Shown here piece by piece: positions 5,168-29,016 of a DNA stretch of 64,000 nucleotides. The notes under the pieces are model-generated. The model worked only from the letters and a program-made list of their open reading frames with translations, made no database searches and was not told the origin of the DNA. A program made the position numbers and the translations under genes. Each line of letters begins with the position of its first letter. The first letter of the stretch is position 1. This stretch comes from a virus, in the IMG/VR virus record IMGVR_UViG_3300042673_002246. One strand, given 5' to 3'.

Positions 5168-5196
5168 ACTGTAGCGACCCGACAGCAGATTTATCT
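5168..5196 (-). promoter_or_regulatory. phage promoter AGATAAATCTGC-N11-TACAGT
   Basis: Member of 20-copy fixed-spacing class; upstream of AAA+ gene. Confidence 0.7.
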
Positions 5197-5311
5197 CGCC
5201 ACTTATCTAGTTAGTTCATACCACTTATCTAGTCAGTCCACTTATCTAGTTAGTTTCACTCGGACACTTATCTAGTTGGTTCCAGCCACTCGGTAATCGT
5301 TCGGCAACTTG

Positions 5312-5381
5312 CACCCGACCACCCCGAGCCTCGCCAACTTACACCCGACCACCCCGAGCCTCGCTTCCTTTGGAAGCCCCG
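5312..5381. repeat. boundary element: 2x CACCCGACCACCCCGAGCCTCGC then AGCCCCG
   Basis: 23-bp direct repeat at 5312 and 5342; AGCCCCG at 5375. Confidence 0.8.
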
Positions 5382-5430
5382 CGGACTTATCTAGTTAGAT
5401 ACAGAATTATTAGATTTTTGACTTATCTAG

Positions 5431-5910
5431 TTAGTCAGGTCGCTTGGCGATAGAGATTCGGTACAAGCCACGCTTGACCTTGATGAACTCTGGAGTTTCG
5501 TTCACGAACCCGAGTGTCGTCTGATACGAGAATCCACACTGCTCAACCAGTTGCTCGGTGGTGAACTCTTTACCGTCTTGGGTCTTTGCCCACTCCATAA
5601 ACGCACCCCATTTGTCCTTGCGTTTTTCAGGCTTCTGCATTGCTTCCCTCTGGACTTCCTTGCCACAGTATGTCTGAATAATGTGGTCGGCGATGTGGGG
5701 AAGCACGGAGTAAGAGTTCAGGTAAGAAAGCACATTTTTGCTTCCACCTTCCCTTTGCCATAATTGCAGTACATGTAGCCCACGAATCAGTTCGCTGGCA
5801 TTGGACGCTTGTTCTTTGGGAATCCGATACATCGTTCCGAATTCTTTTTCCATTTCCTTCCACATCTCTTTGTGGATTCCGTCAATGAATTCATCAGTCA
5901 GTTTTTTCAT
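5431..5910 (-). CDS. hypothetical protein with C-terminal winged-helix-like segment
   Basis: EFTTEQLVEQCGFSYQT...FIKVKRGLYRI; class promoter at 5956-5984. Confidence 0.6.
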   Translation of the reverse strand: MKKLTDEFIDGIHKEMWKEMEKEFGTMYRIPKEQASNASELIRGLHVLQLWQREGGSKNVLSYLNSYSVLPHIADHIIQTYCGKEVQREAMQKPEKRKDKWGAFMEWAKTQDGKEFTTEQLVEQCGFSYQTTLGFVNETPEFIKVKRGLYRISIAKRPD

Positions 5911-6274
5911 GGCTACCTTTCTAGCGGAACTTTATCCCGACTTGCCCGTCACTCCAGATTATCTTTTGGTAGGCAGACTTATCTGGTACGGCAACGCAAG
6001 AAAGTTATTTTTTTGACCACCTGACATCGAGGGCACTTCCTTTCCACCACCGTCAATTAGATTCACCACCCCCCGGGAATTAAATTTGTCAAATTTTTCA
6101 TTTTTTTGCACGTTCTGGCGGCCGGCTGCGGCGGCTCTGGATTTCTGGATTTTTTGGCAGCGAAACGCGGGGCTTACATGGTGAATCGGGTGCATAAAGA
6201 AAGAGGGTGGGTTTGACCCCACCCCCTGACTTATCTAGTTAGTTATCGGACTTATCTAGTAACTAGATAAGTGG

Positions 6275-6673
6275 CTACTGGTTCTTGAGAAAATCCTCAA
6301 TGTCGGGAATCGTCTCTTTGGCTATTTCCCGTGCTTCCGAATAAGCCATAGCGTCCATAATCAAGTCGTCCAGCATGTCTGCCAATGCACGGTCGTCCTC
6401 TGTGAGCAATGGTCCATCAGGACTTGGCACAAGAAACTTTAGCGCCTCATCCTTCTCCTTGTCGGGGAGTTGTGCAATTTCTTGCACCTGCGAGAAACTG
6501 AATCCCATTCGGTGACCATGATTCTGATAAACAAACAGTGCCTCGGTCAATGTCTGCAATGCGTCAAATCCGAATCTGATAAACGGATTCTCGGTGGGAA
6601 ACTCGGTGTTATCAGAGAACACTTTTTTCATTATTTCTTGCATTTCTTCATCATGGTTTTGTTGTTCGCTCAT
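6275..6673 (-). CDS. hypothetical protein
   Basis: ORF with GAGG SD. Confidence 0.65.
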   Translation of the reverse strand: MSEQQNHDEEMQEIMKKVFSDNTEFPTENPFIRFGFDALQTLTEALFVYQNHGHRMGFSFSQVQEIAQLPDKEKDEALKFLVPSPDGPLLTEDDRALADMLDDLIMDAMAYSEAREIAKETIPDIEDFLKNQ

Positions 6674-6822
6674 TTCACTTCCTCTTTCTGTTTGTCGTTG
6701 GTTATTAGCGAACGCAGGTCAAGCAACATGTCGGTCATTTCCGATGAAGCAACTAAGTCTCTGCCCGAGCAGTGACGAATCATTGTGTCCACCAGTTCGG
6801 TTGCTGTAAGTGTTTGGGTCAC
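6670..6822 (-). CDS. small hypothetical protein (50 aa, below ORF-track cutoff)
   Basis: GTG start inside ACTAGATAAGTG; MTQTLTATELVDTMIRHCSGRDLVASSEMTDMLLDLRSLITNDKQKEEVK; ATGA overlap with next gene. Confidence 0.65.
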   Translation of the reverse strand: MTQTLTATELVDTMIRHCSGRDLVASSEMTDMLLDLRSLITNDKQKEEVK

Positions 6823-6826
6823 TTAT

Positions 6827-7531
6827 CTAGTTCCCTTCTTTGTCGTTGTCGGCTTCGGTGAGCAAGGTGTGAAACGCCTTTGCCTTTATTGCCATTTTCA
6901 GGTATGAAATCGTCTGAAGCATGGCATTGGTGAAACGAGCCTCAGCCATTTCGCTGTTCTCATCTGTCAGGTGAACAATGTCAGTGTCCACATCATCAAA
7001 CATCGGTACACCTTGGTCGTCATAGGTGTAGGTGCTTGCGCTCATGTAAATCTTGTCCTGTTCCCAGTCCACGCCACTTACTACAAGACCCTCACGAACA
7101 TCGGTGAAAGGGTTGTTTTGGAACTCATCTTTCAGCGATTCTCTTTCACTGTCACGGTCGGCTGGAGTCGTCAGGTCTGTGAAGCGACGCATGTAACCCT
7201 CAACAGCAACAAAGATGAAGTTCACTGGTGCTGTAGGCAAGTGACCAACAGCGTCAATGTAAGCGTCGTATGGGTCGCCTTTGTGAATCAGTGGAAGCAT
7301 GGCAACATCGTATTGGCGTTCCAAGCCCAACTGCTTTGTGTATTGACTTGCTGATTCAGCCAATTCATCATCTGTATCATCAGACTGGTGAATACGACCA
7401 ATGATGAGCATTGGTGGGGTGTCGCTCATCGCAACCTCTTTGCACATTTCTTTTTTTGCATACTTGTTTCGGCGCATTACATCGCCGAGAATCTTTAGTA
7501 TGTCGTTTGAGATTACTTGCTGTTCGCTCAT
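6827..7531 (-). CDS. hypothetical protein
   Basis: AAGGAG SD; class promoter at 7562-7590. Confidence 0.7.
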   Translation of the reverse strand: MSEQQVISNDILKILGDVMRRNKYAKKEMCKEVAMSDTPPMLIIGRIHQSDDTDDELAESASQYTKQLGLERQYDVAMLPLIHKGDPYDAYIDAVGHLPTAPVNFIFVAVEGYMRRFTDLTTPADRDSERESLKDEFQNNPFTDVREGLVVSGVDWEQDKIYMSASTYTYDDQGVPMFDDVDTDIVHLTDENSEMAEARFTNAMLQTISYLKMAIKAKAFHTLLTEADNDKEGN

Positions 7532-7561
7532 GGCGTTTCTCCTTTGGTGGTAAGTACCAAC

Positions 7562-7590
7562 ACTGTATCTATTAGTAAGCAGACTTATCT
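7562..7590 (-). promoter_or_regulatory. phage promoter AGATAAGTCTGC-N11-TACAGT
   Basis: Fixed-spacing class member. Confidence 0.7.
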
Positions 7591-7638
7591 AGTGAGTATG
7601 GGTGGGGTGTCCACTCCCCACCCATTTCACATCAGGCA

Positions 7639-7863
7639 TTATTTTGCAATAATGTCTTGGGCGTTCACTTTCATCGCTTCGCACAACAATAGAAATGTCG
7701 TCATGCTTGGCGAGAAATGTCCGTTCTCAATGCGATTCACCGTTTTACGGTCAATGCCAGCCTTATTCGCCAGCGTTTCTTGTGACCACTCACGCTCAAG
7801 TCTTTCGTTCTTGAGTCGCTCTGCGATTCGCATTGTCTTTTTCTCAATGGCTGTAAGTGCCAT
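7639..7863 (-). CDS. XRE/Cro-C1 family HTH transcriptional regulator
   Basis: LKNERLEREWSQETLANKAGIDRKTVNRIENGHFSPS. Confidence 0.85.
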   Translation of the reverse strand: MALTAIEKKTMRIAERLKNERLEREWSQETLANKAGIDRKTVNRIENGHFSPSMTTFLLLCEAMKVNAQDIIAK

Positions 7864-7897
7864 GTCTTTCTCCTTTGTTTCTTGGTTGATTTTGGGT

Positions 7898-8665
7898 TTA
7901 GGACTTATCTAGTAAGTAATCGTCATACTGACTGAACGATAGTTTCTCCTTTCGCCTCTGATTAGAACGAATCCACGACACGATGAGTTGCATCGCCTTG
8001 TCGCACGAATCAACCATTTCATCGTCACGGTTTGCTCGCCACTCACTCTGTGCTTCCCAGTATTCGTCCATTTGTTCATCGGTATCTTGGGGCATGCCCT
8101 CTATCTCCGAATCCATTTCGGTTACACCTTCGCCCTCAACAATGAGTTCGCCATTGTGGATTACAACCCAACCAGCAAAGAACTCGGCTTCTTCCGTGAA
8201 CACGACACCGAATACAAGTTTCGGGAACTGCTTTGAGATACGAGCGATAAGACCGTTACACGGCGACCATGCTGACTGGTAATACATTGAGACAGAACCC
8301 TTGTTGTAGTCGTCATCAGATACGCCAACATCACCTGCGCCCCACTTGCTTCCCCATACGGCGTTGGCATAGTCGTACCAGTCCTTGTAGCCGTACTTAT
8401 CTAGGTTGTCTTGCATTTGCTTTTTGTGTTCAGCCTGTTTGTCCTCGGGAACTGAACCCGAAACCGTGTTCATCAACGCCTCGGGAATCGGGTCAAGGTG
8501 GTTGAGTGAATCAACTTCTACTTCTTTTTCACCAGTGGCTACCCATTTGCCGTCTTGGATTTCTCCAGTCTTTTGCAATTCCTTTATCTTGAGTGATTTC
8601 AGGAATCGCTTGAGTTCAGGTTTCGGACCTGACACCTTCATTGTGTTACTGCACCAGTTTGGCAT
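7898..8665 (-). CDS. DUF1281 / YubB ferredoxin-like family protein
   Basis: MPNWCSN start; DWYD...WGSKWGA...SAWSP motifs; class promoter at 8698-8726. Confidence 0.7.
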   Translation of the reverse strand: MPNWCSNTMKVSGPKPELKRFLKSLKIKELQKTGEIQDGKWVATGEKEVEVDSLNHLDPIPEALMNTVSGSVPEDKQAEHKKQMQDNLDKYGYKDWYDYANAVWGSKWGAGDVGVSDDDYNKGSVSMYYQSAWSPCNGLIARISKQFPKLVFGVVFTEEAEFFAGWVVIHNGELIVEGEGVTEMDSEIEGMPQDTDEQMDEYWEAQSEWRANRDDEMVDSCDKAMQLIVSWIRSNQRRKEKLSFSQYDDYLLDKS

Positions 8666-8943
8666 GCTCGCCCTTTCGTCTAGTAGTGGTACGACCCACT
8701 CTAGCCCCACACCAGCAGATTTATCAACCTGACTTATCTAGTCAGCATGTTCTTCCACCACCGTCAATGTCTTGATGTGTTCTCAACCCGACCCGACTTT
8801 CACCCGACCCACCCGTGAGCCGACCCAACTTCTTGCCGACCACCCCGAACCAGCCCCACCCCATCACTTACCGTGTAAGCCCCGCGTCCCACTGTTTAGC
8901 CGGGGCTCAAAGGGTCGAGCTGGTTTAATTTGGTTGGACTTAT

Positions 8944-9273
8944 CTAGTCAGTAATGATTTCGTCTGCGTAAACGAGTTGTGTTTCGCTGACACGCCAGCC
9001 GTTCTGATGGTCCGTCCATGCGTACTTGATAAGTGCCGTCCACTTATCTAGGTAGTCATAAATCTCATCATCGGGAATCCCATAGTCGTCAAAATACGAA
9101 GTGTCGTTCGGGTCTGGCGAGAAAGAGAAATAGACAAATGAGCGACCCTCTGGAAACTCCACTCTGCACTTGCTGCCGATGAGAATCAGACCACGAGCCT
9201 TTATTGCGAGCATGGTCAGAAAGAGCCGAATCGTAACCCATAGGGGAACGAAGAACTTATCTAGTAGGTTCAT
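8944..9273 (-). CDS. hypothetical protein
   Basis: ORF in coupled operon. Confidence 0.55.
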   Translation of the reverse strand: MNLLDKFFVPLWVTIRLFLTMLAIKARGLILIGSKCRVEFPEGRSFVYFSFSPDPNDTSYFDDYGIPDDEIYDYLDKWTALIKYAWTDHQNGWRVSETQLVYADEIITD

Positions 9274-9499
9274 ACGCCATCTCGTTTACGTCTTTGCCGA
9301 GAAGTTGGTCTGTAGTCAGCCGAATTATTGAGCGCACAATGTCGTCACTTGTTATGCCCCACGAATCAAGAGCCCACGCCAATAAAGTTCCATTTGCTAA
9401 ATCACCACAAATTGCTTCTATTGCTTGAGCCCGTGTCGTGGCAAGGAAGTAGTAGTTCTCCCACAAAATCTTGTCTAAATCTTCAGGCGTCAGAACCAT
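9257..9499 (-). CDS. hypothetical protein
   Basis: AAGGAG SD, overlaps neighbours. Confidence 0.6.
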   Translation of the reverse strand: MVLTPEDLDKILWENYYFLATTRAQAIEAICGDLANGTLLAWALDSWGITSDDIVRSIIRLTTDQLLGKDVNEMAYEPTR

Positions 9500-9765
9500 T
9501 TCTCTCCTTTCACGGAAACAGTAGTCCGTACCACCCCAGTTTCGGTAGCAGAAACCACGACTGGAGTCAGCACCTTGTATGCGTTTATCCAGTACTTAGA
9601 CCGTTCAGCAGACCTGACCCATTTCGCCCTTTCTTCATCGGTCATGTATTCCCACTCATCGGGCATTTCATTGGTGGGGATACTCCACTCCTCAATTATT
9701 TCTTCTTCTTCGTGTTTCACAATTTGTGCGCTCGCACGGACTGTGATGTGAACATGGGCAGTCAC
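9490..9765 (-). CDS. hypothetical protein
   Basis: GTG start in GAAAGG-ACTAGATAA-GTG. Confidence 0.6.
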   Translation of the reverse strand: MTAHVHITVRASAQIVKHEEEEIIEEWSIPTNEMPDEWEYMTDEERAKWVRSAERSKYWINAYKVLTPVVVSATETGVVRTTVSVKGEKWF

Positions 9766-9778
9766 TTATCTAGTCCTT

Positions 9779-10279
9779 TCAGTACCAGCAGGTAGAGCCG
9801 TCTGCCTCATCGGCAGTCCAACGAAGCCACCAAATCGCATAACGAATCTGAGGAATCAAATCCTCACCGTTCACGATGAACTCTGGAGAATCCTGAATCT
9901 TTTCGTTCAGAAACCATTCCATTTGGTTGGCAGTTGCTCGGCAACTCTCTGGAGACTTCTCCGTACCTTCCTCATTGTCGCCATAGAAATCGTATTCGCT
10001 AATGCCAAGAGCGTCAATGAGGTAGTTCCCCCACTTACCCCGATACCAGCACGGAGTTCCGAACATGCCGTACACAGCACCTTCGGTCATGCCACTTGCC
10101 TTGACTGCTGTCTGATACGGGCATGCGTTGCGATTAGCAGTTTCCTCACAGGAAATGCTTTCCACGAACTCACCGTCTTGTCCACGAATCGGCTGACCTT
10201 CCTTGTCCAGTCGCCTCACCATTACTGCCGTGCCTTTGGACTTGCACGGGTAGTTCTTCGGTATGTTGTCTAATCCCAT
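9779..10279 (-). CDS. hypothetical protein
   Basis: MGLD start, SD, class promoter at 10311-10339. Confidence 0.7.
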   Translation of the reverse strand: MGLDNIPKNYPCKSKGTAVMVRRLDKEGQPIRGQDGEFVESISCEETANRNACPYQTAVKASGMTEGAVYGMFGTPCWYRGKWGNYLIDALGISEYDFYGDNEEGTEKSPESCRATANQMEWFLNEKIQDSPEFIVNGEDLIPQIRYAIWWLRWTADEADGSTCWY

Positions 10280-10615
10280 TTTCTTCCCCTTTGGTTTAGT
10301 AGGTGATTACACGATACATGTGTACGAGCAGACTTATCTAGTAATCCTTTCCACCACCGTCAAACAGTTAGAGCCAGCAAACGACATTCCCCCGACACGC
10401 CCGAACTTTGCGCACTTTTCCCCGACCACCCCCGTTGCTCGCAAAAAAATCCATTTTTTATCACTTCCCGTGTGAGCCCCGGCTCATGGTCGGGGCGCGG
10501 GGCTTCCATCGTCGGAAGCGAACTTATCTAGTAAGTATTCGGGTCGGCACTTATCTAGTAAGTATCCAGCCAGCCCGACCCACCGTTGGCAAGTGGGTCA
10601 GACTGACTAGATAAG

Positions 10616-10927
10616 TCACTCGGCTTCGGCGATACCAGCCCTGCCCTCGTAGCCACGAACAGCGTTAGAGATTTGCCCGTAATAGTCACCGTTCTCGCAG
10701 TACCAGCCTTCGGGTCGTGCGATGAGTGTCCACACCACGAACGGCGAGTAGGTGTCGTTCGGCAAGTGGCACAGCACTGTCCACGAAGCGTACAGACCGT
10801 CACCAGCGACATTACGCAAGTGATACGCAAGCACCAAACCGTCATTGGCGTTAGTAAGCACCAGCCCCACTTTGGGGGCTGGTGACTTATCTAGTGAGTT
10901 GATGTGGTGAATAGTTGCTTCACTCAT
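10616..10927 (-). CDS. hypothetical protein
   Basis: Start moved to ATG overlapping upstream gene end. Confidence 0.6.
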   Translation of the reverse strand: MSEATIHHINSLDKSPAPKVGLVLTNANDGLVLAYHLRNVAGDGLYASWTVLCHLPNDTYSPFVVWTLIARPEGWYCENGDYYGQISNAVRGYEGRAGIAEAE

Positions 10928-11390
10928 TGGGAAGTTCACCGTTGGCGAAGTAGTTATCCATTTGCTCATCGGTCATACCGATTACCTTTGGTGCGAAGTT
11001 CTCATCATCGCTCGCCCAGTCGGTGAGCCAATTTGCGTACTCACCGTCAGTGCGAACGGTCTTGACGAGATTTGCGAATTGCTCACTCCATACGAACGCA
11101 GGAACATCGTGGTTCTCTCCGTCATACTCGCCCTGCTCGTTGAGCGCACCGATTACCACGCAGTCACCTGCCAGTGGTCTGCCGAACAGTGCCGAAGCGA
11201 CTGCGTTCATTGGCAAGCCGATGAGCAAGCCTTCATCGTTGATGTAACCAACAATGCCCAAGTTTCCCTCGTTCACGCTGTCAAACCAACCACCTACGAT
11301 TTCGTTGATGGCGATGTGAGCCGTGTCCTCGTCAAGAAAGAGTGGCAAGCACTCTCCCTCGCTTGTGATGTGTAATGCCTTTGTTGCCAT
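10920..11390 (-). CDS. DUF3846-like protein
   Basis: IVGGW...YINDEGLLIGLPMN...LAGDCVV; class promoter at 11431-11459. Confidence 0.65.
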   Translation of the reverse strand: MATKALHITSEGECLPLFLDEDTAHIAINEIVGGWFDSVNEGNLGIVGYINDEGLLIGLPMNAVASALFGRPLAGDCVVIGALNEQGEYDGENHDVPAFVWSEQFANLVKTVRTDGEYANWLTDWASDDENFAPKVIGMTDEQMDNYFANGELPNE

Positions 11391-11485
11391 TGTTCTACCC
11401 CCTTCGGGTCTAGGTATTTATTACGATTTCATCGTAATAGTGGGTGGGCAGACTTATCTAGTAAGTCCACCCACCCACTGAACGA

Positions 11486-11896
11486 CTAAGCGACTTTGCT
11501 CGCCTTGCTTGCTGGCTTGACTGCGCCCTTCGCTGGCTTCACCAGCACTCGGACATAGTTCGTGATTTCCACGACTGACTTGATTACCTTGTTTGGTATT
11601 TCGCCCTTGTCCACTGCGCTATCCCACGCCTTCGTGTCCACGCTTGGCTTCGTCACCTTACGGAACAGAGCAGGACTGACTGACTTGCGCAACTTATCTA
11701 GTGAGAAAGACCTGCGCTCGCTCGGCGTGACCGAGAGAGTGATTTCGTCTTGCGTGAAGTCGTTGATGCCGTTCTCGGCGAACACTGCGACAAGAGTTTC
11801 TCTTGCCACTTCGTGCGCCTGCTCGGCTTGTTCTTTCGCTGTGAGAGCGTTTAGGAACGCTTCCACTGCTTGCTTGACTTGGGTTTCTGTAGCCAT
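11486..11896 (-). CDS. hypothetical protein
   Basis: AAGGAG SD; class promoter at 11937-11965. Confidence 0.65.
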   Translation of the reverse strand: MATETQVKQAVEAFLNALTAKEQAEQAHEVARETLVAVFAENGINDFTQDEITLSVTPSERRSFSLDKLRKSVSPALFRKVTKPSVDTKAWDSAVDKGEIPNKVIKSVVEITNYVRVLVKPAKGAVKPASKASKVA

Positions 11897-12327
11897 TGGT
11901 TTAGTCTCCTTTGTGTTGGGTGGTGGCTTGCGCACCACCCTACACCCGTGAGAGCAGATTTACCAACATCGCTAGACAGATTTCTGAACTTGCCCCCGAC
12001 ACGCCCGATTTCCACTTGCCCCCGACCACCCCGTGCGCCCATTATTCTTGCCCTATGCGCCCTTTCCTTGTAAGCCCCGGCAGCCAGCCCTTCCAACGGG
12101 GCTCAGAAGGTTGGATAGAGGAAAGGCTGGCACTTATCTATGAAATGACAGCCGAAGCGAACAGACTGATAGCAATAGCCGAAGCAAGCAACGCCGAAGC
12201 GAAAGCCCTGCTCGCTCGTAGTCGCTTCTCGCTCGTCAGGGACTTATCTAGTTAGATAAGTGAAACGGGTGGCTCACCATTTCTGGCAAGCCACCCGTTA
12301 CTTTCGGTGGTTTAGTGGGAAAGGGGG

Positions 12328-12753
12328 TTAGAGATACTTCGCCACCGAGTTGTAGGTGCTTGCGCTCACCAACTGCTCGTCTGTGAGTTTCAGCACACGA
12401 ATTGCCTGTGAGATTTCCTCTTTTTCACGCTTGAACTCGTGTTCGCTGTAACCCGTAGGGCGTTCAGGCTCGGCTGGGAGTGCGCCTGCTGGAAGCAGAA
12501 CGCTGACGCTGAACGATACTTTGCCCTTGTGCTTGCGGTCACGGGAGTACCAATAGTTCTTGCTGGCTTCCTCAATTTCGCCTTTTCCTGCTTTGATGAG
12601 TTTCAGGACAGCGAGGTTGTACGCCTCAACTGCCTTTTCGTAGGCAAGTTCCTCTTTCTCTTGGTTCTTGTACCGAGCCTCACGCTCGGCAAGAGCCTTC
12701 TCTAAGTGAGAGATGAGAACACTCACCTTCACCTTGACTTTGACTGTGGACAT
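12328..12753 (-). CDS. hypothetical protein
   Basis: AAGGAG SD; class promoter at 12800-12828; hairpin 12264-12299 downstream. Confidence 0.65.
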   Translation of the reverse strand: MSTVKVKVKVSVLISHLEKALAEREARYKNQEKEELAYEKAVEAYNLAVLKLIKAGKGEIEEASKNYWYSRDRKHKGKVSFSVSVLLPAGALPAEPERPTGYSEHEFKREKEEISQAIRVLKLTDEQLVSASTYNSVAKYL

Positions 12754-13076
12754 TATTGCTCTCCTTGTTCGGGGTCTAGTTGGTATCCGAACACCACCCA
12801 CGCTACGAACACGACAGCAGACTTATCTCCACTTATCTAGTCAGTTCAGTTTCCTTTCCACCACCGTCAATAAGTTGAGGACAGATGTTGGTCGCCGTTT
12901 CTTTCAGCGCAAACTTTCGCCCGACCACCCCGAAGCGCACTCACTTCGCTTCACTCGCCTGCTTACCGTGTAAGCCCCGTGGTTTTTTGTTTTATTGAGC
13001 GAAGCGGGGCTCAAACCGTTGAGTGAGTGTTTGGCAACTTATCTAGTGAGTGTGTGTGGACTTCGGACTTATCTAG

Positions 13077-13376
13077 TTAGTTATCGTCTATCGGCAGGTC
13101 TATCGCCTGTCCTGCGTGTATAGTCGTGCCGTACTTATCTACTAAGTAATCGGCAACCTGCGTGATTTCGCCAGTACACTCTGTCTCTGCGATACTCCAT
13201 AGCGTGTCACCCTCTCTAACGATTATCGTTGCTTCCGAGCAAGCGTAATCGGGCTGATTTGCTGTGTGAGTGGCAAGCAACGCAATGATAATAACTGCGA
13301 TTATTGCGAACGCTCTGAACTTACGAGCAAGCATACGGTAGTGCTGGTCATACTTATCTAGTTCATTATTTCTCAT
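13077..13376 (-). CDS. membrane-anchored LysM-domain protein
   Basis: N-terminal TM helix; IIVREGDTLWSIA...IHAGQAIDLP; class promoter at 13405-13433. Confidence 0.75.
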   Translation of the reverse strand: MRNNELDKYDQHYRMLARKFRAFAIIAVIIIALLATHTANQPDYACSEATIIVREGDTLWSIAETECTGEITQVADYLVDKYGTTIHAGQAIDLPIDDN

Positions 13377-20081: not shown

Positions 20082-20096
20082 ACTAGATAAGTAATG

Positions 20097-21247: not shown

Positions 21248-21440
21248 GGTTGGCTCCTTCTAGTTACTTGTCTCAGGTGGCTTATTGCCACTTGGGGACA
21301 GACTAGGGCTTGCCAATACGAGTTCACAACCTCCAACAAAGATTTTTTTTATGTTGCATGGTGGCGTAAAGATGACTAATATTGCCTCCGACCGATGTGA
21401 AGCGCTCACAAAGGCAAACAAACAACTAGGAGATAGCTAA

Positions 21441-21719
21441 ATGGCTACAAAGAAAAAAGCTGCACCAAAGAAAGCAGCAAAGAAAAAGCCGGCCAAGAAA
21501 ACTGCAAAGAAAGCAGTAAAGAAAGCAGTAAAGAAGAAGCCAGCAAAGAAAGCCGTCAAGAAGGCAACCAAGAAGACAGCAAAGAAAGCAAAGACGGTCA
21601 AGAAGGCTGCCAAGAAGGCAGTTCGGATGCCAGCTCCTGCTCGCAAGAAGCTAAAGAAAGCTATTGCTAATAACTCATCAATTATCGACGGTCCAATCGT
21701 CGACAACGCGCAGAAGTAA
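21441..21719 (+). CDS. histone H1-like Lys/Ala-rich DNA-binding protein
   Basis: KKAA/KKPA/KKAV repeats; AGGAG SD. Confidence 0.7.
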   Translation: MATKKKAAPKKAAKKKPAKKTAKKAVKKAVKKKPAKKAVKKATKKTAKKAKTVKKAAKKAVRMPAPARKKLKKAIANNSSIIDGPIVDNAQK

Positions 21720-21725
21720 TTACGC

Positions 21726-22031
21726 ATGTCTCGCCTGCGAATAGAAAGAACAGAGATGTCTCAAATCGGTGAGCCCTCACAGCCTTCGTCAAAGGCGAAG
21801 ACAAGCACAATCAGCTTCGACGAGTGGCTCCACATCGGTCTAGAAAATGACTGGTGTGGACCACCCGTATGCTCAATACATGACGGTATCCCAATGAGCG
21901 AAGCTGAAGAAGAGGAATTTCAGGAAGGTGACCCGTGTGTGCACATCATTCGTTTGTACGAAGATGAAGAGCAAAAGAAGTTGGTAGAAGACTTCCACTC
22001 GCCATCCAATTGGCGTAAACCACTTATCTAG
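21726..22031 (+). CDS. hypothetical protein
   Basis: ORF; start uncertain. Confidence 0.55.
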   Translation: MSRLRIERTEMSQIGEPSQPSSKAKTSTISFDEWLHIGLENDWCGPPVCSIHDGIPMSEAEEEEFQEGDPCVHIIRLYEDEEQKKLVEDFHSPSNWRKPLI

Positions 22032-22208
22032 TTAAGTTCACCCACAGCACTTATAACGGCCACGACGAGGTGGTCTTTGGCTTGTTTTGGCTTCTGATAC
22101 AGGAACAGCACGACGAGTGAAATTTGGTGCTTCTGTTTCCTGCTCTTGTTTTTTCTTTTTAGCCATACCCTATTTTCTCATAGGGAAGCAGCTCTATGGT
22201 GGAAGCGC

Positions 22209-22415
22209 CTAGAACAGGGCTATTTGGATACCACCAGTATCTTCTACTTGTTTGCAGTAGTTGTGCTTGTATTCGTGAAGCTCGTCAATAACTTCGGAAA
22301 TTGTTGTCCCCTTGGCTTTAAGCCAAACAACAGCTTTACGTTCGCTAATCGAATCTTGTGGGCGCAACGGTAGACCACATACGCAACACGTGAACAACGG
22401 TGGGAGTGAAGCCAT
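22209..22415 (-). CDS. hypothetical Zn-binding protein
   Basis: CCVC...HNYC. Confidence 0.5.
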   Translation of the reverse strand: MASLPPLFTCCVCGLPLRPQDSISERKAVVWLKAKGTTISEVIDELHEYKHNYCKQVEDTGGIQIALF

Positions 22416-22421
22416 AATCTA

Positions 22422-22619
22422 TTACCACTTTCCTACTGGGCATTCAGCCTCAATTAGTCTTGTTTTTAAATGCATGAAGCAACCACACACAGCGCACTGC
22501 TGCGTTTGGCGCAAGAATTCAGGGCATGCCTTGCAGATAGCGAAGCGCTCCTGTTGTTTCTTTTCGGTCGTGTAATTCTGTCGGCGCAGCAAGTGCCAGG
22601 GCATGTTTCGTCGTCTCAT
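22422..22619 (-). CDS. small Cys-rich protein (DUF6171-like)
   Basis: RFAICKACP...CAVCGCFM..KT...AECPVGKW. Confidence 0.55.
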   Translation of the reverse strand: MRRRNMPWHLLRRQNYTTEKKQQERFAICKACPEFLRQTQQCAVCGCFMHLKTRLIEAECPVGKW

Positions 22620-22873
22620 AACTTAATCCCGACCACCCCGTGCCTTGCTATCAAATTTTAAAAATCCGTACAGAACTAGCAAGAGCAGCACGGAAACAAT
22701 AACGCTGTTGGTATCCATGGACCCATGATAGCGATTTTCTCGCTTTTCATCAAGCTCACTGATAAACCTGCTTTCCTCGACTTAGGATTCACATCGCAGA
22801 CCGGCAGGGCTCACACTCTCCTTTCGGTATCCAACACACGTGAGCCTTGTCGGTCCTCATTTTTATCTGTACA

Positions 22874-24811
22874 ATGTCCATCGTGAAGTTATTTTTAGAC
22901 CACAACGAAATAATTCTTGATTTTCCATTTGATGCCGGCCAGGTTGAGGAAATAAAACGCATATCAGGTGCAAGGTGGGACAAGATTGGCCGTGTGTGGC
23001 GCTTACCAATTACGGCTATCAATGAAGGTCGTGAGTTTGCATTGCGTCATAACTTTGAGGTCACTGTCGATGCTCTAAAGTTCTCCGTACCAATACCTGC
23101 TATAGGGCGCACCGGTGCTCGTGTGTATGTCGATAATGGTATGGCGGTTATCCGTGTGCCTTATGAGCGAGTAATCATTAAGGCTATTAAACAAATACCT
23201 GGCATTACATGGGATAGCAAAATGCTTGCATGGAAAGCCCCCCTTACATCGATTACAAATATCATTACGTGGGCCAAATCTTTCGGCGTTACCGTAGACA
23301 ATGAGCTAATGGACATGGCTGTACAAGTAGAGACAGAGATGACTGAATTGATACAGGCATCACGCTCGGTAGACGCAGAGATACAGATACCTGAACTACA
23401 AGGCGCACTGCTGCCGTATCAGAAAGCTGGAGTTTCGTACGCTGCAAGAGCCCGTAGGACATTTATCGCTGACGACATGGGTCTCGGAAAGACACTGCAG
23501 GCGATGTCCACGCTCGAATACGTTCACGACAGTTACCCAGCAGTCGTTGTATGTCCACCAAGTCTCGTGCTTAACTGGGCGAGTGAATATTCGAAGTGGT
23601 ATCCACATCGCAAGGTGGCCACTGTGACGAACCGTAAGTCATTCCCTGACGCAGGCACATATGACGTTGTGGTAGTTGGATACAGCAATATCGCTACATG
23701 GGAGAAGCAACTATCCAAACATCGCTCGTACGTATGGGATGAAAGCCACTATCTAAAAACGCCCACCTCGCAGAGAACGAAAGCAGCAGTCAAGATAGCT
23801 CGTAGCGCACCAAAAGAAGGTCTCGTATTGTGTCTCACGGGAACACCCGTAACGAACAGGCCGAACGAATACGCAAGCCAACTTGATGTACTGGGTCGCC
23901 TCAAGGACTTTGGTGGGTTGTGGGGTTTCTATCGACGCTATTGCGCTGCATACCAAGACAGTTTTGGTCAGTGGAATATCAGTGGACACTCACACCTAGA
24001 CGAACTCAATGACAGGCTTCGTGGCACTTGCTACATACGCCGTACGAAAGACCAAGTGTTATCGGAGTTGCCACCCGTAGTCCATAGCAAATTGCTGGTA
24101 GAGGGCTCATCACAAGCGATGAAAGAATACAAGAAAGCAGAGAACGACATTATTCTCTACATCGCAGAGCGAGCCCGACAACTCGCCATAGAGCAGGGCA
24201 AGTCACAGCACGGCGCTGCCATATCAGCAATGATTAGGGCAGAAGCGAACGAACATTTAGTCCGTCTGTCGGTGCTTCGCCGTCTTGCTGCGAAAGCAAA
24301 GATGGAAGTCGCTCATGAGTGGATTACTGAACGTATAGAGGCCGGCCGTAAGGTCGTTGTCGCTGCACACCATCGAGACATCGTTGACGAAATCGCCCGT
24401 AAGTATGGAGACCTACGTATTCAGGGTGGAATGAAGGTTGAGGAAGTAGAGGAGAATAAACGCAAGTTTCAGCAGTTAACCGTAGATAAAGCACCCGTAA
24501 TCGTGTTATCTATCCAGGCTGCCAAAACTGGACACACACTCACTGCGTCAGAGGAGTGTTTATTCATAGAACTTCCGTGGACACCAGCAGACGTAGACCA
24601 GACATACTCACGCCTACATCGCATCGGACAACAAGGAAGCGTGACGGCAACTTATCTATTAACTAAAGACACCATTGATGAGGAGATTTATCAACTCATC
24701 GAGCGAAAGCGTTCGGTGGTAAATGCGTCAGTAGAAGGTGGGGAGTTCGCTAACGAGGATAGTGCCGTGCAACTTATTCTGAATTTACTCGGTAAAGCAG
24801 AACAGAACTAA
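22874..24811 (+). CDS. SNF2-family helicase with tandem HARP-like N-terminal domains
   Basis: DDMGLGKT, WDESH, LTGTP, SRLHRIGQ; two FPFD/VPYE...IPG..WD....W repeats. Confidence 0.85.
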   Translation: MSIVKLFLDHNEIILDFPFDAGQVEEIKRISGARWDKIGRVWRLPITAINEGREFALRHNFEVTVDALKFSVPIPAIGRTGARVYVDNGMAVIRVPYERVIIKAIKQIPGITWDSKMLAWKAPLTSITNIITWAKSFGVTVDNELMDMAVQVETEMTELIQASRSVDAEIQIPELQGALLPYQKAGVSYAARARRTFIADDMGLGKTLQAMSTLEYVHDSYPAVVVCPPSLVLNWASEYSKWYPHRKVATVTNRKSFPDAGTYDVVVVGYSNIATWEKQLSKHRSYVWDESHYLKTPTSQRTKAAVKIARSAPKEGLVLCLTGTPVTNRPNEYASQLDVLGRLKDFGGLWGFYRRYCAAYQDSFGQWNISGHSHLDELNDRLRGTCYIRRTKDQVLSELPPVVHSKLLVEGSSQAMKEYKKAENDIILYIAERARQLAIEQGKSQHGAAISAMIRAEANEHLVRLSVLRRLAAKAKMEVAHEWITERIEAGRKVVVAAHHRDIVDEIARKYGDLRIQGGMKVEEVEENKRKFQQLTVDKAPVIVLSIQAAKTGHTLTASEECLFIELPWTPADVDQTYSRLHRIGQQGSVTATYLLTKDTIDEEIYQLIERKRSVVNASVEGGEFANEDSAVQLILNLLGKAEQN

Positions 24812-25275
24812 TCGGTTTCGGAACTTGTTTCCGACTTACCCGTGGCACCCTGGGTGCGACCGTAAAATATTTCCTCTGCAATTAGTTTGGAATATTTCTT
24901 ACGCAAGCGCCATATTTTCTTGTTCATTTCAGTCATCTCTTGGCTCATTCGAGCTTTGATTATTGCTTTGTCGTCATACACGCCGTGCCCATTAAATAGT
25001 GCGTCATGGATATCTGCGTCCTCAATGATGATGTCTGATATCCAACCGGCACGTTTGTCTATTGCCATCATTAATTCACACAAACCCTCTACGCCGAATT
25101 CATCGTGAATTCGATTTGCGATTATTGAGCAGAAGTGTGAACGATACATATTTCTCGCTTTCTGCGAGTTAGACATGAACTCGGATATGAACAGCGCAAG
25201 TTCTTCCTTTGTCGGCATTTCTTCGCCATCATCACCGGCAAATTCGTAAAAATCGTCTGCGCCGTCGTTATTCAT
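24808..25275 (-). CDS. hypothetical protein
   Basis: ORF with GAGG SD. Confidence 0.6.
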   Translation of the reverse strand: MNNDGADDFYEFAGDDGEEMPTKEELALFISEFMSNSQKARNMYRSHFCSIIANRIHDEFGVEGLCELMMAIDKRAGWISDIIIEDADIHDALFNGHGVYDDKAIIKARMSQEMTEMNKKIWRLRKKYSKLIAEEIFYGRTQGATGKSETSSETD

Positions 25276-25323
25276 CTTGCCTCACTTTTCTATGGGCTTG
25301 ACTAATAATACCCGTACTAGAAG

Positions 25324-26349
25324 TCAGACATTTGTTAATAGATAAGTTTGAGTTTTTAGTTTTGTTCTCGTCACCCATGAGTTGTTGTCCATGGACGCGA
25401 GCGCGCGTTCATCGCGAGAAGCATCTCGGTAGTGGTCGAGATATTCGCCGATGGCGTTATAGATTGACCAGCCGTTGTACCCGTAGTTCTTTGCGTTGTT
25501 TTCGTTTTCATAAATAGCGCGAACTAGCGACAACACGTCATCACGGTTCTTTCTCTGACGCTCTGTGCTATTTGGCTCTATCGGAAATGCTGTATTTAGG
25601 ACTTTGTCAAGAACTTGTGTGCGTGCTGGAACTTTCACTGCCAGTAGTCGTTCGGCAGTAGCAGCAAAGTTGTTTGCCCATTCATTAGATATCGCAAGAA
25701 CTTCATTCGCTTGCTCTATCGCTCTGTCTGCATTACGAGTGTGACGAGCAGTAAATACCCGTCGAGCGCTTTCTATGCCAAGCGTTACGGTATTTTGACA
25801 TACGGCACGAATAGAAGTGTTGGCGAATGTAATTGCCGTCTTTCCATCGTGTCCATTGCGAACAAGTAAGTAGCGCGCTATTTGGTCATTCACGCCAGCA
25901 GGGTCTACGACTATCGCGCCCAAGTCAAGTGAAGCAAAGAAACCTTTTCCATCGTGTAGAACACCGGCGGTATCTACAACTGCGTCTCCTTCGGAAGCAC
26001 CCACGATGCTTAGCGCATAATCCAAACACTCTTTATTCTGCTGAACTACATAACGCGTTCCAACGGTGGCCAAACCGGTGAATGTGCCGTCAATGTTGAC
26101 CCGTACGGTTGCACGACTGTCCGGCACGAGAATAGTTGTGCCATCAGGGTTCCGTAGTGGTTCGCCATTGTCATCGCAAATTGCCACCCGTGTTGTGACT
26201 ACATCGAAGTTCGCCTGTGAAGCTTCGAGCATTGCCTCTGCCGTTTGTAGCCCCTTCATTGGCGTTCCAAGCCTGTGCCACGGGATTTCTCTGTCGGCGT
26301 ATGCCATTCTCGCTGTGCCGTCTTTATTGATTTCTAGTCCGTGTGCCAT
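25324..26349 (-). CDS. DUF932 family phage/plasmid protein
   Basis: MAHGLE...PWHRLG...YLLVRNGHDG...IRAVCQNT...RHT. Confidence 0.85.
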   Translation of the reverse strand: MAHGLEINKDGTARMAYADREIPWHRLGTPMKGLQTAEAMLEASQANFDVVTTRVAICDDNGEPLRNPDGTTILVPDSRATVRVNIDGTFTGLATVGTRYVVQQNKECLDYALSIVGASEGDAVVDTAGVLHDGKGFFASLDLGAIVVDPAGVNDQIARYLLVRNGHDGKTAITFANTSIRAVCQNTVTLGIESARRVFTARHTRNADRAIEQANEVLAISNEWANNFAATAERLLAVKVPARTQVLDKVLNTAFPIEPNSTERQRKNRDDVLSLVRAIYENENNAKNYGYNGWSIYNAIGEYLDHYRDASRDERALASMDNNSWVTRTKLKTQTYLLTNV

Positions 26350-26489
26350 TTCGTGTCTTTCCTTCTCTCTCTTTTAGATAAATCTAACCGAGTATTGCCT
26401 GGTTCATTGTACACCGGGGCTCCAGAGGCAGGGGCAGTGGTTGGGGTTCGGTCTGTGGCGAGGGCGCACGGGTGGGTCGGCAGAAAGTC

Positions 26490-26518
26490 GGATAATTCTG
26501 CTCGTCAATGGTTATGAT
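26490..26518 (+). promoter_or_regulatory. phage promoter GGATAATTCTGC-N11-TATGAT
   Basis: Variant class member. Confidence 0.6.
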
Positions 26519-26554
26519 TTATTCAGGAACTAACGCTCGTGAAAGGGGCAACTA

Positions 26555-26833
26555 ATGAAGTTACTAGATAAGTGCGAAAACTGGTGTCAGGAACATTATC
26601 TCGGAACGATGAAGGCTCTGCTCGGCATTATCTCTGCCGTGCCGACTATCGGACTGTTCGGAGTGGTTCAGGCGTACTACAACAGCAACATCGGCGACCT
26701 GCTGACCTGTTTGTTCATCGTGGTAGGTGGAACGGTGATTACCACCCTATTCGCTCTGACCGTGTACAACGAACATCAAGACGAACGCTACGGCTCTATT
26801 CGCCGTCACCCAGTCACGAAGCGAGTGCGCTAA
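26555..26833 (+). CDS. small membrane protein
   Basis: Two TM segments; AAAGGGG SD. Confidence 0.6.
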   Translation: MKLLDKCENWCQEHYLGTMKALLGIISAVPTIGLFGVVQAYYNSNIGDLLTCLFIVVGGTVITTLFALTVYNEHQDERYGSIRRHPVTKRVR

Positions 26834-27534
26834 TGACTACGACAGCACTGGACACCCGTAGCGTGTTAGCAGAAATGCTAACAGAAAACACTGGAACGCA
26901 CATCTTGGACAGTGGTGGCGCATACGGCAGGAACTGGGAACGAAACAATGGCAAGACGCTTGCCGATTTTGAGAACGAACCGACTGCGTGGGCTGACGGT
27001 TATGGCGTAGTGCTTTCAGTTTTTCACTTTCTTGCGAACCGTGTGGAGTTTCTGCCGAGTATCCAAGCCGAGTTAGATGATTTGGCACGGTGTATGCCTG
27101 ATGAGGGCTGGTTGGCTATCGCCGAGACACTGGCTGAACGCTACGACCCTAAGCCTCGTACTTGGAACACTTACAACGGCGAGGACAGTCTTTCGCAAAC
27201 ACTACAAGGCGTATCGTTCACCCGTAATGACGGTGAGACTGTGAGCCTTATTCAGATACACGGGGGCTGTGATGTTCGTGGTGGATACACGAAGCCTCGT
27301 GCTTTCCGTGTGACGGTGGAAATGGCTGACTGTTTCCCATACGACCACAACTCTTATGAGTTGGAGTGTCCGACTGATAACGAACACTCTCTCTCGTATT
27401 TGGGTGAGTACATCGGTTGGCACGGGTCAAGCATTGACGCTGATGAGTATCCGACATACGACAGCGAGAAGCGAACAGCGAACTGTGTGAAGTGTGGTTC
27501 GCCATTCATCGTTCACGCCTCTGAACCGTACTAG
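26833..27534 (+). CDS. hypothetical protein
   Basis: Start at TAATG overlap; ENTGTHILDSGGAYGRNW, IHGGCDVRGGY. Confidence 0.7.
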   Translation: MTTTALDTRSVLAEMLTENTGTHILDSGGAYGRNWERNNGKTLADFENEPTAWADGYGVVLSVFHFLANRVEFLPSIQAELDDLARCMPDEGWLAIAETLAERYDPKPRTWNTYNGEDSLSQTLQGVSFTRNDGETVSLIQIHGGCDVRGGYTKPRAFRVTVEMADCFPYDHNSYELECPTDNEHSLSYLGEYIGWHGSSIDADEYPTYDSEKRTANCVKCGSPFIVHASEPY

Positions 27535-27767
27535 ATAAGTCTCAACGGTCACCCGTAGCCTCTGCGCTCTTATCCCCAACCCCCTTTCATCAAGGGCGTA
27601 GGGGTTACGGGGTTTCACTTATCTAGTGAGCATTACTCTGCTACGGCGAGACTATGACTTACTAGATAAGTGTTCATCACAAGTGAGGGCAAAGTGCGAA
27701 GCACTGCGCCAGCCGGGGCTCCGAGCGTTTGAGTGTGGTTTGTGTTGTAACTAGATAAGATGATGAG

Positions 27768-28100
27768 ATGAACGAGAACACCTATCGAACAGCAAAGACA
27801 ATTCTCATCGCTATCGCAATAACACTTGCGTCAGTATTCGCATTTGGGTATTTGGAAAGACAGCAAGCAAGAGACAGTGAGTTCTTTTGTGATGGCACAC
27901 CAGTCACTATCAAAGAAGGCGACACTCTCTATTGGATAGCCCGAACAAAGTGTGAAGGCAACACTATGGAAGTGGTGGACAGACTTGTCGCCCTGTACGG
28001 CACGACATTGACTATCGGTGACACCATCTATCTGCCGACACACAACTCCTGTGAGTTGCGTATGACAGACGGTGGTCAAGTAATGGAAGAGTGTGCGTGA
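27768..28100 (+). CDS. membrane-anchored LysM-domain protein (paralog of 13077-13376)
   Basis: TM helix; TIKEGDTLYWIA...LTIGDTIYLP. Confidence 0.75.
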   Translation: MNENTYRTAKTILIAIAITLASVFAFGYLERQQARDSEFFCDGTPVTIKEGDTLYWIARTKCEGNTMEVVDRLVALYGTTLTIGDTIYLPTHNSCELRMTDGGQVMEECA

Positions 28101-28109
28101 TGAACTTAT

Positions 28110-28313
28110 CTAGTTCAGTATCTGTCCAACACTGACAACGAAAACTTCTCCACAGTAAAGCACACGGGCGTACTGTTTATCTGTGTCGTGGTATGAGATG
28201 AACTCTGCTTCCACAGCACCCGTAGTCATTCGGCGTGCCTTGTCTGAAACGATGTGACCGAACGACACTGGTATCAACAGCGTCTGACCTACGGTAAGTC
28301 CTTTGGTAATCAC
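28110..28313 (-). CDS. hypothetical protein
   Basis: Coupled ORF. Confidence 0.5.
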   Translation of the reverse strand: MITKGLTVGQTLLIPVSFGHIVSDKARRMTTGAVEAEFISYHDTDKQYARVLYCGEVFVVSVGQILN

Positions 28314-28498
28314 TAGATGCCGTATGTTCCGAGTTGAGTGCGCTCTGCTTGGCGCAAGACTTCGTAGATTTCGGAAACATGCGCTTCCGTGTGTTCATCA
28401 TCAGCGAACAACCTGACTATCTGTAAGACACACTCCAAGCGAGCAACCTGCTGTGCCGTAAGTGTGATAGTGAGTTCTGCGTTTCGTGCTATTCCCAT
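28313..28498 (-). CDS. hypothetical protein
   Basis: SD; class promoter at 28520-28548. Confidence 0.55.
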   Translation of the reverse strand: MGIARNAELTITLTAQQVARLECVLQIVRLFADDEHTEAHVSEIYEVLRQAERTQLGTYGI

Positions 28499-28546
28499 TG
28501 TGTTCCCCTTTCGGTATTGACCTTAGGGTAGGGCGAGCAGACTTAT

Positions 28547-28954
28547 CTATTTACTATCTGTGACATCACGCCACTGACCATCAACGACCACCTGATAGTG
28601 CGCCCCCGACACTGGCACGAGTTCGCCATTAGCATTGCGTTCATACTTGCCGAAGTTCTCAGTGGAACGCCATGCCCACTCACAGCACGGTGTTTCACTA
28701 TCGCAGGGGTGTGTCCCCTTACCTATCGTCTCTGCCAATGCTGGGAACAGAGTAAGGAACTTCACTATGCAGTCGTGACACAGTATCCAACTACGGCTAC
28801 GGCGATTACTAAACAGTACATCTACCTCATCAGTGAAGCCACCATAGTAACCAAATAGGTCAAATGGTAAATCCCAACCGTTACTAGGTAGGTGCTTTTG
28901 TTCATCGCACTGGACATCGTAGTCACAACCTGAACAGCGAACATGGTTACTCAT
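28547..28954 (-). CDS. hypothetical Cys-rich protein
   Basis: Class promoter at 28964-28992, near-leaderless. Confidence 0.6.
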   Translation of the reverse strand: MSNHVRCSGCDYDVQCDEQKHLPSNGWDLPFDLFGYYGGFTDEVDVLFSNRRSRSWILCHDCIVKFLTLFPALAETIGKGTHPCDSETPCCEWAWRSTENFGKYERNANGELVPVSGAHYQVVVDGQWRDVTDSK

Positions 28955-29016
28955 AACATCTCAACGATAGTCGTATGCGAGCAGACTTATCTAGTACCCG
29001 TAGCACTTGGCGACTT

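Follow-up and report, generated by a model that had tools for sequence, protein, structure and literature searches.

The 64,000-nucleotide (nt) stretch of viral DNA analyzed here (hereafter the window) corresponds to positions 459-64458 of IMG/VR record IMGVR_UViG_3300042673_002246, which is 133,891 bp long and was judged to be 89% complete; a near-identical contig reaches 153.9 kb, and the genome of this uncultured phage is about 155-160 kb in size. For the phages of the abundant, hard-to-culture freshwater Actinobacteria, this locus offers a clean regulon in which some 20 promoters of fixed architecture share a family-wide block at -28. It is described here as a regulated family of phage promoters; that the host polymerase is redirected in a novel manner is not claimed as proven. 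Each promoter consists of a 12-nt box, an 11-nt spacer and a TAnnnT hexamer, and several boxes are fused to a lineage-specific 11-mer repeat, ACTAGATAAGT. The 20 promoters are as follows.

5168..5196, minus strand: cassette promoter (box, 11 nt, TACAGT), heading an AAA_5 ATPase gene and a gene for a 513-amino-acid protein (Pfam)
5956..5984, minus strand: cassette promoter with exact box and TAnnnT
7562..7590, minus strand: cassette promoter, box fused to the 11-mer repeat
8698..8726, minus strand: cassette promoter with variant box TTGATA... (5/6 matches to TTGACA, 18-nt spacing), heading a DUF1281_C gene and an XRE gene
10311..10339, minus strand: cassette promoter fused to the 11-mer
11431..11459, minus strand: cassette promoter fused to the 11-mer, heading a DUF3846 gene (Pfam)
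11937..11965, minus strand: cassette promoter with variant box TTGGTA...
12800..12828, minus strand: cassette promoter with exact box
13405..13433, minus strand: cassette promoter, its 5' side abutted by a G-rich repeat ending in AAGT
13974..14002, minus strand: cassette promoter fused to the 11-mer
14329..14357, minus strand: cassette promoter with exact box
15214..15242, minus strand: cassette promoter fused to the 11-mer
16340..16368, minus strand: cassette promoter fused to the 11-mer
16888..16916, minus strand: cassette promoter fused to the 11-mer, heading a DUF6011 gene (Pfam)
17457..17485, minus strand: cassette promoter with variant box (C at position 7)
18640..18668, minus strand: cassette promoter fused to the 11-mer, the last leftward one
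19599..19627, plus strand: first rightward cassette promoter, exact box
26490..26518, plus strand: cassette promoter with variant box GGATAAT...
28520..28548, minus strand: cassette promoter with exact box
28964..28992, minus strand: cassette promoter fused to the 11-mer, start codon 9 nt past the -10

A preliminary description of this DNA had listed these 20 sites, and all of them, with their coordinates, were found to be correct, TCTGC-N11-TAnnnT followed by a gene start being common to 20/20 sites. The exact sequence AGATAA-R-TCTGC is present at 16 of them, and AGATAARTCTGC occurs 16 times in the window versus 0.02 times expected from shuffled sequences. When the full 133,891-bp record was scanned, all 16 exact copies of AGATAARTCTGC were followed after exactly 11 nt by TAnnnT, and no exact copy was found anywhere in the record outside positions 5-29 kb of the window. 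The four inexact sites deviate in the AGATAA-R part only, by one base (8715-8726 and 17474-17485) or by two (11954-11965 and 26490-26501), and keep TCTGC intact. Because the chance of meeting TAnnnT at the fixed offset is about 0.015-0.018 per site, its presence at 20/20 sites is far beyond chance. After each of the 20 hexamers there is a purine-rich ribosome-binding site and then a start codon, at a distance of 21-46 nt from the hexamer, with the exception of the nearly leaderless site at 28992 (9 nt). The box lies at about -35 to -24 and the -10 is of the sigma-A type, a geometry that agrees with that first proposed, and the -10 hexamers (TAC-AGT, TAT-CGT and TAG-AGT) have the actinobacterial form. 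At the -35 position these promoters read TAGATA, CAGATA or GAGATA, the first of which has 4/6 matches to TTGACA and stands 18 nt from the -10, and the two most deviant boxes start with TTGATA and TTGGTA. Sites resembling TTGACA-N16-18-TATAAT were not in excess between 1 and 20 kb of the window (13 versus 16.5 expected), and the promoters of this phage show no dyad symmetry between the 12-mer and the -10 region. The conserved motif TTGACGGTGGTGGAA was also considered as a -35 element and was rejected, its distance to any -10-like hexamer varying from 17 to 25 nt.

As calculated from their coordinates, the 16 leftward promoters are spaced 355-1613 bp apart (mean about 900 bp), and nine GCCCCG...CGGGGC stem-loops are located 15-180 nt 5' of 10 promoters, giving a repeating unit of stem-loop, repeats, promoter and one to three genes. 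Among the small cassette genes the Pfam families AAA_5, DUF932, DUF3846, DUF1281_C, DUF6011, DUF4314 and SNF2 helicase were recognized, several of which are frequent in accessory or anti-defence regions of mobile elements. A literature search with the motif string returned unrelated matches only.

To compare the promoters with those of other phages, relatives were collected through the conserved protein encoded at 1541-1915, which identified 31 IMG/VR loci at 67-99% identity, several of them on complete genomes of 145-159 kb. Selection was assessed against a relative at 90.6% identity, with which 13 promoters are shared. Changes were observed at 3 of 156 box positions (1.9%) and at 3 of 78 positions of the -10 hexamer (3.8%), all of the latter at n positions, whereas the 11-nt spacer had changed at 15/143 positions (10.5%), the upstream flank at 45/520 (8.7%) and the downstream flank at 36/533 (6.8%). 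Judged from these counts, purifying selection acts on the box. Moreover, ten orthologous genes whose products are 30-83% identical have a promoter at the same upstream place in all five lineages examined. The consensus of 85 pooled promoters, which had been selected by a pattern including the TCTG core, is AAGTCTG..CC....gtGgTAc..T, in which the AAGTCTG block spans about -31 to -25; most lineages also have TGG as an extended -10. An orthologue-anchored comparison made without selection for TCTG revealed the same block, with occasional CCTG, TTTG or TCCG. Taken together, these data allow the 20 sites to be regarded, as far as sequence comparison can establish it, as functional and co-regulated promoters with a sigma-A type -10.

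The hexamer located 17-18 nt 5' of the -10 varies by lineage, being TTGGGA in genome G003, TTGTAG in G004, TTGTAA or TTTGTA in G001, and TAGATA in the window's phage and in half of the G001 promoters. Since the relatives have TTG-type hexamers together with the extended -10 TGG, the promoters look competent for sigma-A. The sequence AGTCTG-N12-TAnnnT was rejected as a general host promoter feature: in 41 genomes of the candidate host family, Nanopelagicales, it matched 125 times and its reversed control 216 times. Because it is not enriched there, the block is regarded as phage-specific.

The region that holds the promoters is also the field of the 11-mer repeat.

2262..29683, both orientations: field of the lineage-specific repeat ACTAGATAAGT

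The 11-mer occurs 69 times, always within the first 31 kb of the record, and its 10-mer core 71 times. The core copies comprise 9 that are fused to promoters, 11 lying at most 120 nt 5' of a promoter, 13 at gene 3' ends, 9 intragenic and 29 otherwise intergenic ones, with 57 in the sense and 14 in the antisense orientation. Each related lineage has its own abundant 11-13-mer in the same region, of which there are at least nine versions (for example, AATAGATAAGT, GGTAGATAAGT, GAGTAGATAAGT, GTGTAGGTAAGT, GGGGGATAAGT and AAGGATAATGT), so that the repeat co-varies between phages in the manner of immunity or specificity sites. The promoter box and the 11-mer are related but distinct, because AGATAA-n-TCTGC persists at 8 of the 20 promoters in which the ACT of the repeat is missing, and because position 7 is free in the promoters and always G in the repeat. 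In other lineages the repeat is found a few bases 5' of the hexamer at the -35 position, and only in the window's lineage, and partly in one other, does it overlap the AAGTCTG block. As the repeat has slid onto the hexamer position in the window's phage, AGATAA is assigned to it: by this comparison the lineage-specific repeat contributes AGATAA, its 3' part, whereas the family-wide element is AAGTCTG, and the composite nature of the 12-base box can be regarded as shown at the sequence level. The box had been presented as a single element of a new promoter class; it is indeed a real and selected signal, but it is made of two parts. Likewise, the many copies away from promoters, which had been taken for additional sites of the same or a competing factor, do exist, but they are copies of the separable 11-mer and not of the promoter box itself. 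In addition, two tandem units of the 11-mer followed by GTACC-N6-GATAC are present at 2318-2373 (plus strand), where they form TTGACT-N17-GATACT-like promoters directed against the neighbouring genes.

Alternatively, the promoters might be alike through concerted evolution, that is, homogenised by recombination or gene conversion at cassette boundaries without any dedicated factor, the 11-mer then acting mainly as a joint for recombination and as a stop signal in several frames. In favour of this, TAG and TAA are found in two frames of the 11-mer, frequently preceded directly by a TAA or TGA, and 13 gene ends bear a copy of it; small and often lineage-specific genes are separated repeatedly by the unit of stem-loop, repeats and promoter; each lineage has homogenised its own -35 hexamer and the bases after TCTG; and there is a precedent in the PeSL elements (PMC2839356). 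Nevertheless, in lineages whose proteins are 30-50% identical AAGTCTG has been preserved at precisely the same spacing from the -10, the box is unchanged between two lineages that differ at 10% of the neighbouring bases, and most cassette genes are syntenic orthologues between lineages, several being lineage-specific, rather than shuffled ones. Homogenisation as the sole cause is therefore rather improbable.

Two further repeats accompany the promoters. A G-rich repeat (GGGGTGGTCGGG or GGGTGGGTCGG, 3-5 nt, AAGT) is present in at least 14 copies, often in tandem (5325, 5355, 10432, 12032, 12931, 13453, 14401, 17036-17086, 18785, 22639 and 26470), and its AAGT abuts the promoter box in two cases (13433 and 26490). 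The TGTCGG-like strings within it were rejected as PafBC boxes, no TAnnnT being found at 10 nt. The second, (T/A)TGACGGTGGTGGAA, is a motif of 13-15 nt found on the minus strand at 20, 772, 1941, 6054, 8765, 10361 and 12868 and also in nearly all related loci, where it is conserved at the nucleotide level even though the proteins encoded beside it share only 30-40% identity. It is often situated 10-30 nt 5' of a cassette promoter or directly past a stop codon, and its GGTGGTGG core complements a CCACCA(A)C element of many cassette 5' leaders.

A closer look at the relatives revealed that the conserved block belongs to a larger structure. In genomes G001-G004 it runs on as CTG-TACC, 6 nt, GGTAC-AG, forming a palindrome with the AAGTCTG block on its left arm and with the extended -10 and the -10 as its right arm; within 45 kb of G004 there are 8 perfect copies of GTACC-N6-GGTAC and 14 with one mismatch. 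A candidate binder is encoded inside the regulon.

7639..7863, minus strand: 74-amino-acid XRE/Cro-type HTH_3 protein, candidate binder of GTACC-N6-GGTAC

This protein matches HTH_3 with 52.6 bits and has orthologues in all related lineages, and its recognition helix, DRKT-V/I-N/S-R-I/L-ENG, hardly varies among the phage lineages, all of which were compared, and the closest host copies. When 185,579 species genomes were scanned with the family promoter pattern, 14 matches were obtained, one of which lies among ordinary host genes in a Candidatus (Ca.) Nanopelagicales genome, about 30 nt 5' of an XRE gene. The product of this host gene has 86 amino acids and is 41% identical (E 7e-12) to that of the phage gene at 7639-7863, and the genome has no second palindrome of this type. 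Orthologues of the XRE gene were compared in six genomes of the order: in three of them GTACC-N6-GGTAC stands in front of the gene, and in two ATACC-N6-GGTAT. In the Ca. Nanopelagicales metagenome-assembled genome JAYPCW010000037.1 (L171/L181), the palindrome is located at 5063-5080 and the XRE gene at 5114-5374, downstream of serC. Because the palindrome is shared with the region preceding a homologous host XRE gene and the recognition helix is nearly invariant, the XRE/Cro-like protein is the likely, predicted binder of the palindrome, and these same data suggest that Nanopelagicales is the host order of the phage. Such a shared pair of operator and regulator would tie the phage to its likely host order, and cross-talk between host and phage regulators through the palindrome and the XRE proteins is possible.

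With these elements in hand, the reading that we tentatively prefer is that the cassette promoters are -10-driven host sigma-A promoters overlaid by sites for phage regulators, which would allow their coordinated control. The housekeeping sigma-A RNA polymerase of the host would read the 20 promoters through the TAnnnT -10, in line with the fact that many mycobacterial sigma-A promoters consist of a -10 alone (PMC8635444). The promoters would head short cassettes within a ~30-kb early or accessory arm of a phage of low-GC (guanine plus cytosine) freshwater Actinobacteria. The upper spacer and the -35 region would hold the regulator sites: in the relatives, the palindrome is most likely the operator of the conserved XRE/Cro-like protein, and in the window's lineage the 3' part of the 11-mer would have moved onto the -35 position. 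Phage proteins could then switch the roughly 20 cassettes together. Since the conserved block makes up one half of a palindrome resembling an operator, repression is suggested as much as activation, and the most plausible outcome of such joint control would be the shut-off of the cassettes after the early phase; a repressor of this kind would make the arm a compact early shut-off circuit. We infer the identity of the binder of each site, the sign of the regulation and its timing.

Several observations sit uneasily with this sigma-A reading. The copies lacking the ACT of the 11-mer read CAGATA or GAGATA at -35, with 3/6 matches to TTGACA and no TTG, which by sequence is a poor target for sigma region 4. 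No perfect GTACC-N6-GGTAC is present in the window's phage, where the palindrome is gone from all 20 promoters and the only near copies of it in the cassette arm are those of the two tandem units, at 2330 and 2357 of the window; TCTGC is nonetheless invariant and under selection there. Because the palindrome has been lost and TCTGC is still selected, control by an XRE operator fits the relatives better than the window's phage, and it accounts for the origin of the block and not for its present conservation in that phage. Furthermore, a promoter of another type is found where the leftward and rightward cassette arms diverge.

18922..19584, plus strand: canonical promoter TTGCTT-N17-TAATGT, then 7 nt and the leaderless ATG (18958) of a gene for a 208-amino-acid protein

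The 208-amino-acid gene (phrog_4776) is lineage-specific, and TTGC-type promoters also occur in the AT-richer part of the phage genome. From their sequences, the phage uses at least two promoter classes, which leaves room for, and does not prove, a hierarchy with cassette promoters that depend on a phage factor.

Such a dependence is the essence of the main rival reading, a sharpened form of the view put forward in the preliminary description: the cassette promoters would be silent with the host RNA polymerase alone, and a phage activator bound at about -31 to -24 would adapt or replace sigma-A region 4, in the manner of T4 MotA/AsiA or mycobacterial PafBC. That the short cassettes are driven as one set has stood, but the activator part is, in our judgement, less probable than the sigma-A reading. 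In its support, the asymmetric 12-mer placed 11 nt from the -10 fits the geometry of the MotA box and of the PafBC -26 element, the unfused copies lack TTG at -35, the box is free of any palindrome in the window's lineage, and AGTCTG-N12-TAnnnT is not a general host signal, as the comparison of 41 genomes (125 versus 216) had indicated. The best candidate for the activator is the protein through which the relatives had been found.

1541..1915, plus strand: 124-amino-acid protein combining an HA domain and a helix-turn-helix (HTH) like that of sigma-70 region 4, candidate box-binding factor
1512..1525, plus strand: perfect LexA/Cheo-type SOS box CGAAC-N4-GTTCG, just 5' of the -10 of the leaderless 1541-1915 gene

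The HA domain of this protein scores 48.8 bits and the sigma-70 region-4 HTH 27.5 bits, above the cut-off, and the HTH is invariant in 16 diverse homologues and, like AAGTCTG, across lineages. The gene is preceded by CGAAC-N4-GTTCG, which we take to be the LexA/Cheo box of Gram-positive bacteria, in 22/22 sequences compared (the window and 21 related loci, e.g. L133, L146 and L149), with invariant arms and a free N4. This arrangement suggests that the conserved regulator is under host SOS control, and its promoter, composed of SOS box, -10 and leaderless start, differs in type from those of the cassettes; the gene itself is kept in every lineage examined. Neither the 41 genomes of the host family nor cultured phages gave a match to the protein. 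Nine fragmentary contigs were selected solely for having at least two family promoters; of these, five encode both the HA/sigma-4-like and the XRE proteins, two have the XRE gene at the contig end with the place of the other gene beyond that end, where it would be expected, and two (71% and 21% complete) lack both; this co-occurrence with the promoter family cannot separate the candidate from XRE or other conserved genes.

On the opposite side, no match at E <= 1 to MotA (PF09114) or AsiA (PF09010) was obtained in the 133.9-kb record, the WYL domain (PF13280), as in PafBC, had no match in it, and sigma-70 region 2 was found neither there nor in the extra 29 kb of a near-identical complete record. 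The AlphaFold model of the HA/sigma-4-like protein (predicted local distance difference test score, 85) gave no significant match to any activator when compared with the Protein Data Bank (PDB) by Foldseek, the best E being 0.3 and the Mor/C activators of phage Mu appearing only in insignificant rows, and a PDB search with its sequence returned generic HTH matches only. The TTG-type -35 hexamers and extended -10 of the relatives, which look sigma-A competent, usually make activators unnecessary. An activator repressed by the SOS system is awkward for early genes, and immediate-early genes cannot wait for a factor made by the phage unless it is injected. Were the activator model true, it would represent a third independent case of re-aiming the housekeeping sigma factor. 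The more specific proposal that the 1541-1915 protein docks on AAGTCTG, at about -28, acting as a surrogate or adaptor of sigma-A region 4 and timed by the host LexA, appears unlikely; if correct, it would be an actinophage system of sigma appropriation unrelated to MotA/AsiA and PafBC.

A strict 12-mer at a constant distance from the -10 is reminiscent of the sequences that phage-specific sigma factors recognise, and the giant multi-domain virion proteins make injected factors conceivable, so the whole 29-nt signal might instead be read by a polymerase or sigma factor that is encoded by the phage or delivered with the virion. However, no T7-type RNA polymerase was matched in the record or in the extra 29 kb, a search that was made without a positive control and is weak evidence, and sigma region 2 was equally missing from both. 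The ordinary actinobacterial TAnnnT -10 and the TGn of the relatives are, moreover, hallmarks of a housekeeping sigma factor, which makes reading by a dedicated phage enzyme very improbable.

When compared with known systems, the sigma-A promoters with overlaid regulator sites that we prefer share some features with each of several families. The middle promoters of phage T4 likewise combine, by the dozen, a host -10 with an asymmetric box near -30 that replaces the -35 (PMC2988021 and PMC6755090), a likeness that concerns geometry only, and about half of them carry TGn, as do the relatives of the window's phage. The MotA box has its centre at -30, a distance of 12 +/- 1 bp to the -10 and the consensus (a/t)(a/t)(a/t)TGCTTtA (PMC2988021), to which the sequence AGATAA-R-TCTGC is unrelated; neither MotA nor AsiA was matched, and the box of the relatives, unlike that of T4, is half of a palindrome overlapping the -10. 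PafBC promoters have a canonical -10 and a -26 element of the TGTCGG type at -23 to -28, with no -35 (PMC8635444). They share with the cassette promoters an actinobacterial host, the combination of a canonical -10 with a specific element at about -28 to -23, and a GTC triplet in that element, but positions -28 to -23 of the cassette promoters are TCTGC-n in 20/20 sites, GTC stands 2 bp further upstream, and the phage lacks a match to a WYL protein.

The PeSL elements of T4-type phages also frame small genes with a stem-loop and an early-type promoter in tens of repeats (PMC2839356 and PMC4122927). Their promoters are, however, canonical sigma-70 promoters, whereas the cassette promoters lack TTGACA and have the family-wide block and the 11-mer, and most cassettes of this family are syntenic between lineages. 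As for the 11-mer, it is similar to the operators and stoperators of Cluster A phages, which are likewise short, asymmetric and placed in promoters and in small gaps between genes (PMC9283540 and PMC6550527); in both, most copies are oriented with transcription (57/71 for the 11-mer) and the sequence changes with the lineage. Unlike stoperators, its 71 copies are confined to one 30-kb arm, where some are arranged in arrays or as inverted pairs. Neither an L5-type repressor nor any sign of lysogeny was recognized, and no search was aimed at an integrase. The 74-amino-acid HTH_3 protein encoded inside the regulon and the GTACC-N6-GGTAC of the relatives' promoters recall control by XRE repressors of the Cro/CI type, from which the window's phage departs in that the palindrome has decayed at all 20 promoters. 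For none of the compared families (T4 middle promoters, PafBC promoters, PeSL and Cluster A) are all the defining features present in the window's phage.

An actinobacterial host is supported by two WhiB genes, by the conserved LexA/Cheo box, by the relatives of the capsid protein and by the link to Nanopelagicales described above. The capsid protein is of the HK97 type, and its closest cultured relatives, at about 49% identity, are from Brevibacterium and Gordonia phages. One of the WhiB genes is in the window.

46851..47204, minus strand: WhiB-like gene, marker of an actinobacterial host and possible sigma-A-binding regulator

Used as bait for the host in genome contigs, the WhiB protein gave no match, and a near-identity DNA search against 50,697 phage records found nothing but a tRNA. 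The second WhiB gene lies in ~29 kb of the near-identical 153.9-kb contig that are absent from the record (L192/L193, G005:116000-146000), together with genes for a MarR/TrmB-like winged-helix protein, a HicB-like protein, a VanY-type endolysin and a proteasome-subunit-like protein; that segment is free of cassette-class promoters. The candidate regulators of the phage thus comprise the XRE protein, the HA/sigma-4-like protein, the two WhiB proteins and the winged-helix protein, and its promoter set could supply orthogonal parts for actinobacterial synthetic biology.

As to the genome as a whole, the first ~30 kb have a GC content of 50-54%, versus about 44-47% elsewhere, and an assembly chimera was rejected as the cause of this step at ~30 kb, since independent contigs span the junction. 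The phage carries eight tRNA genes and encodes the giant multi-domain proteins mentioned above. Finally, two small, lysine/alanine-rich, histone-H1-like proteins are encoded at 21441-21719 (plus strand) and 47674-47961 (minus strand); they may coat DNA, and the gene at 21441-21719 is made of tandem GCTTTCTTTGC-type repeats.

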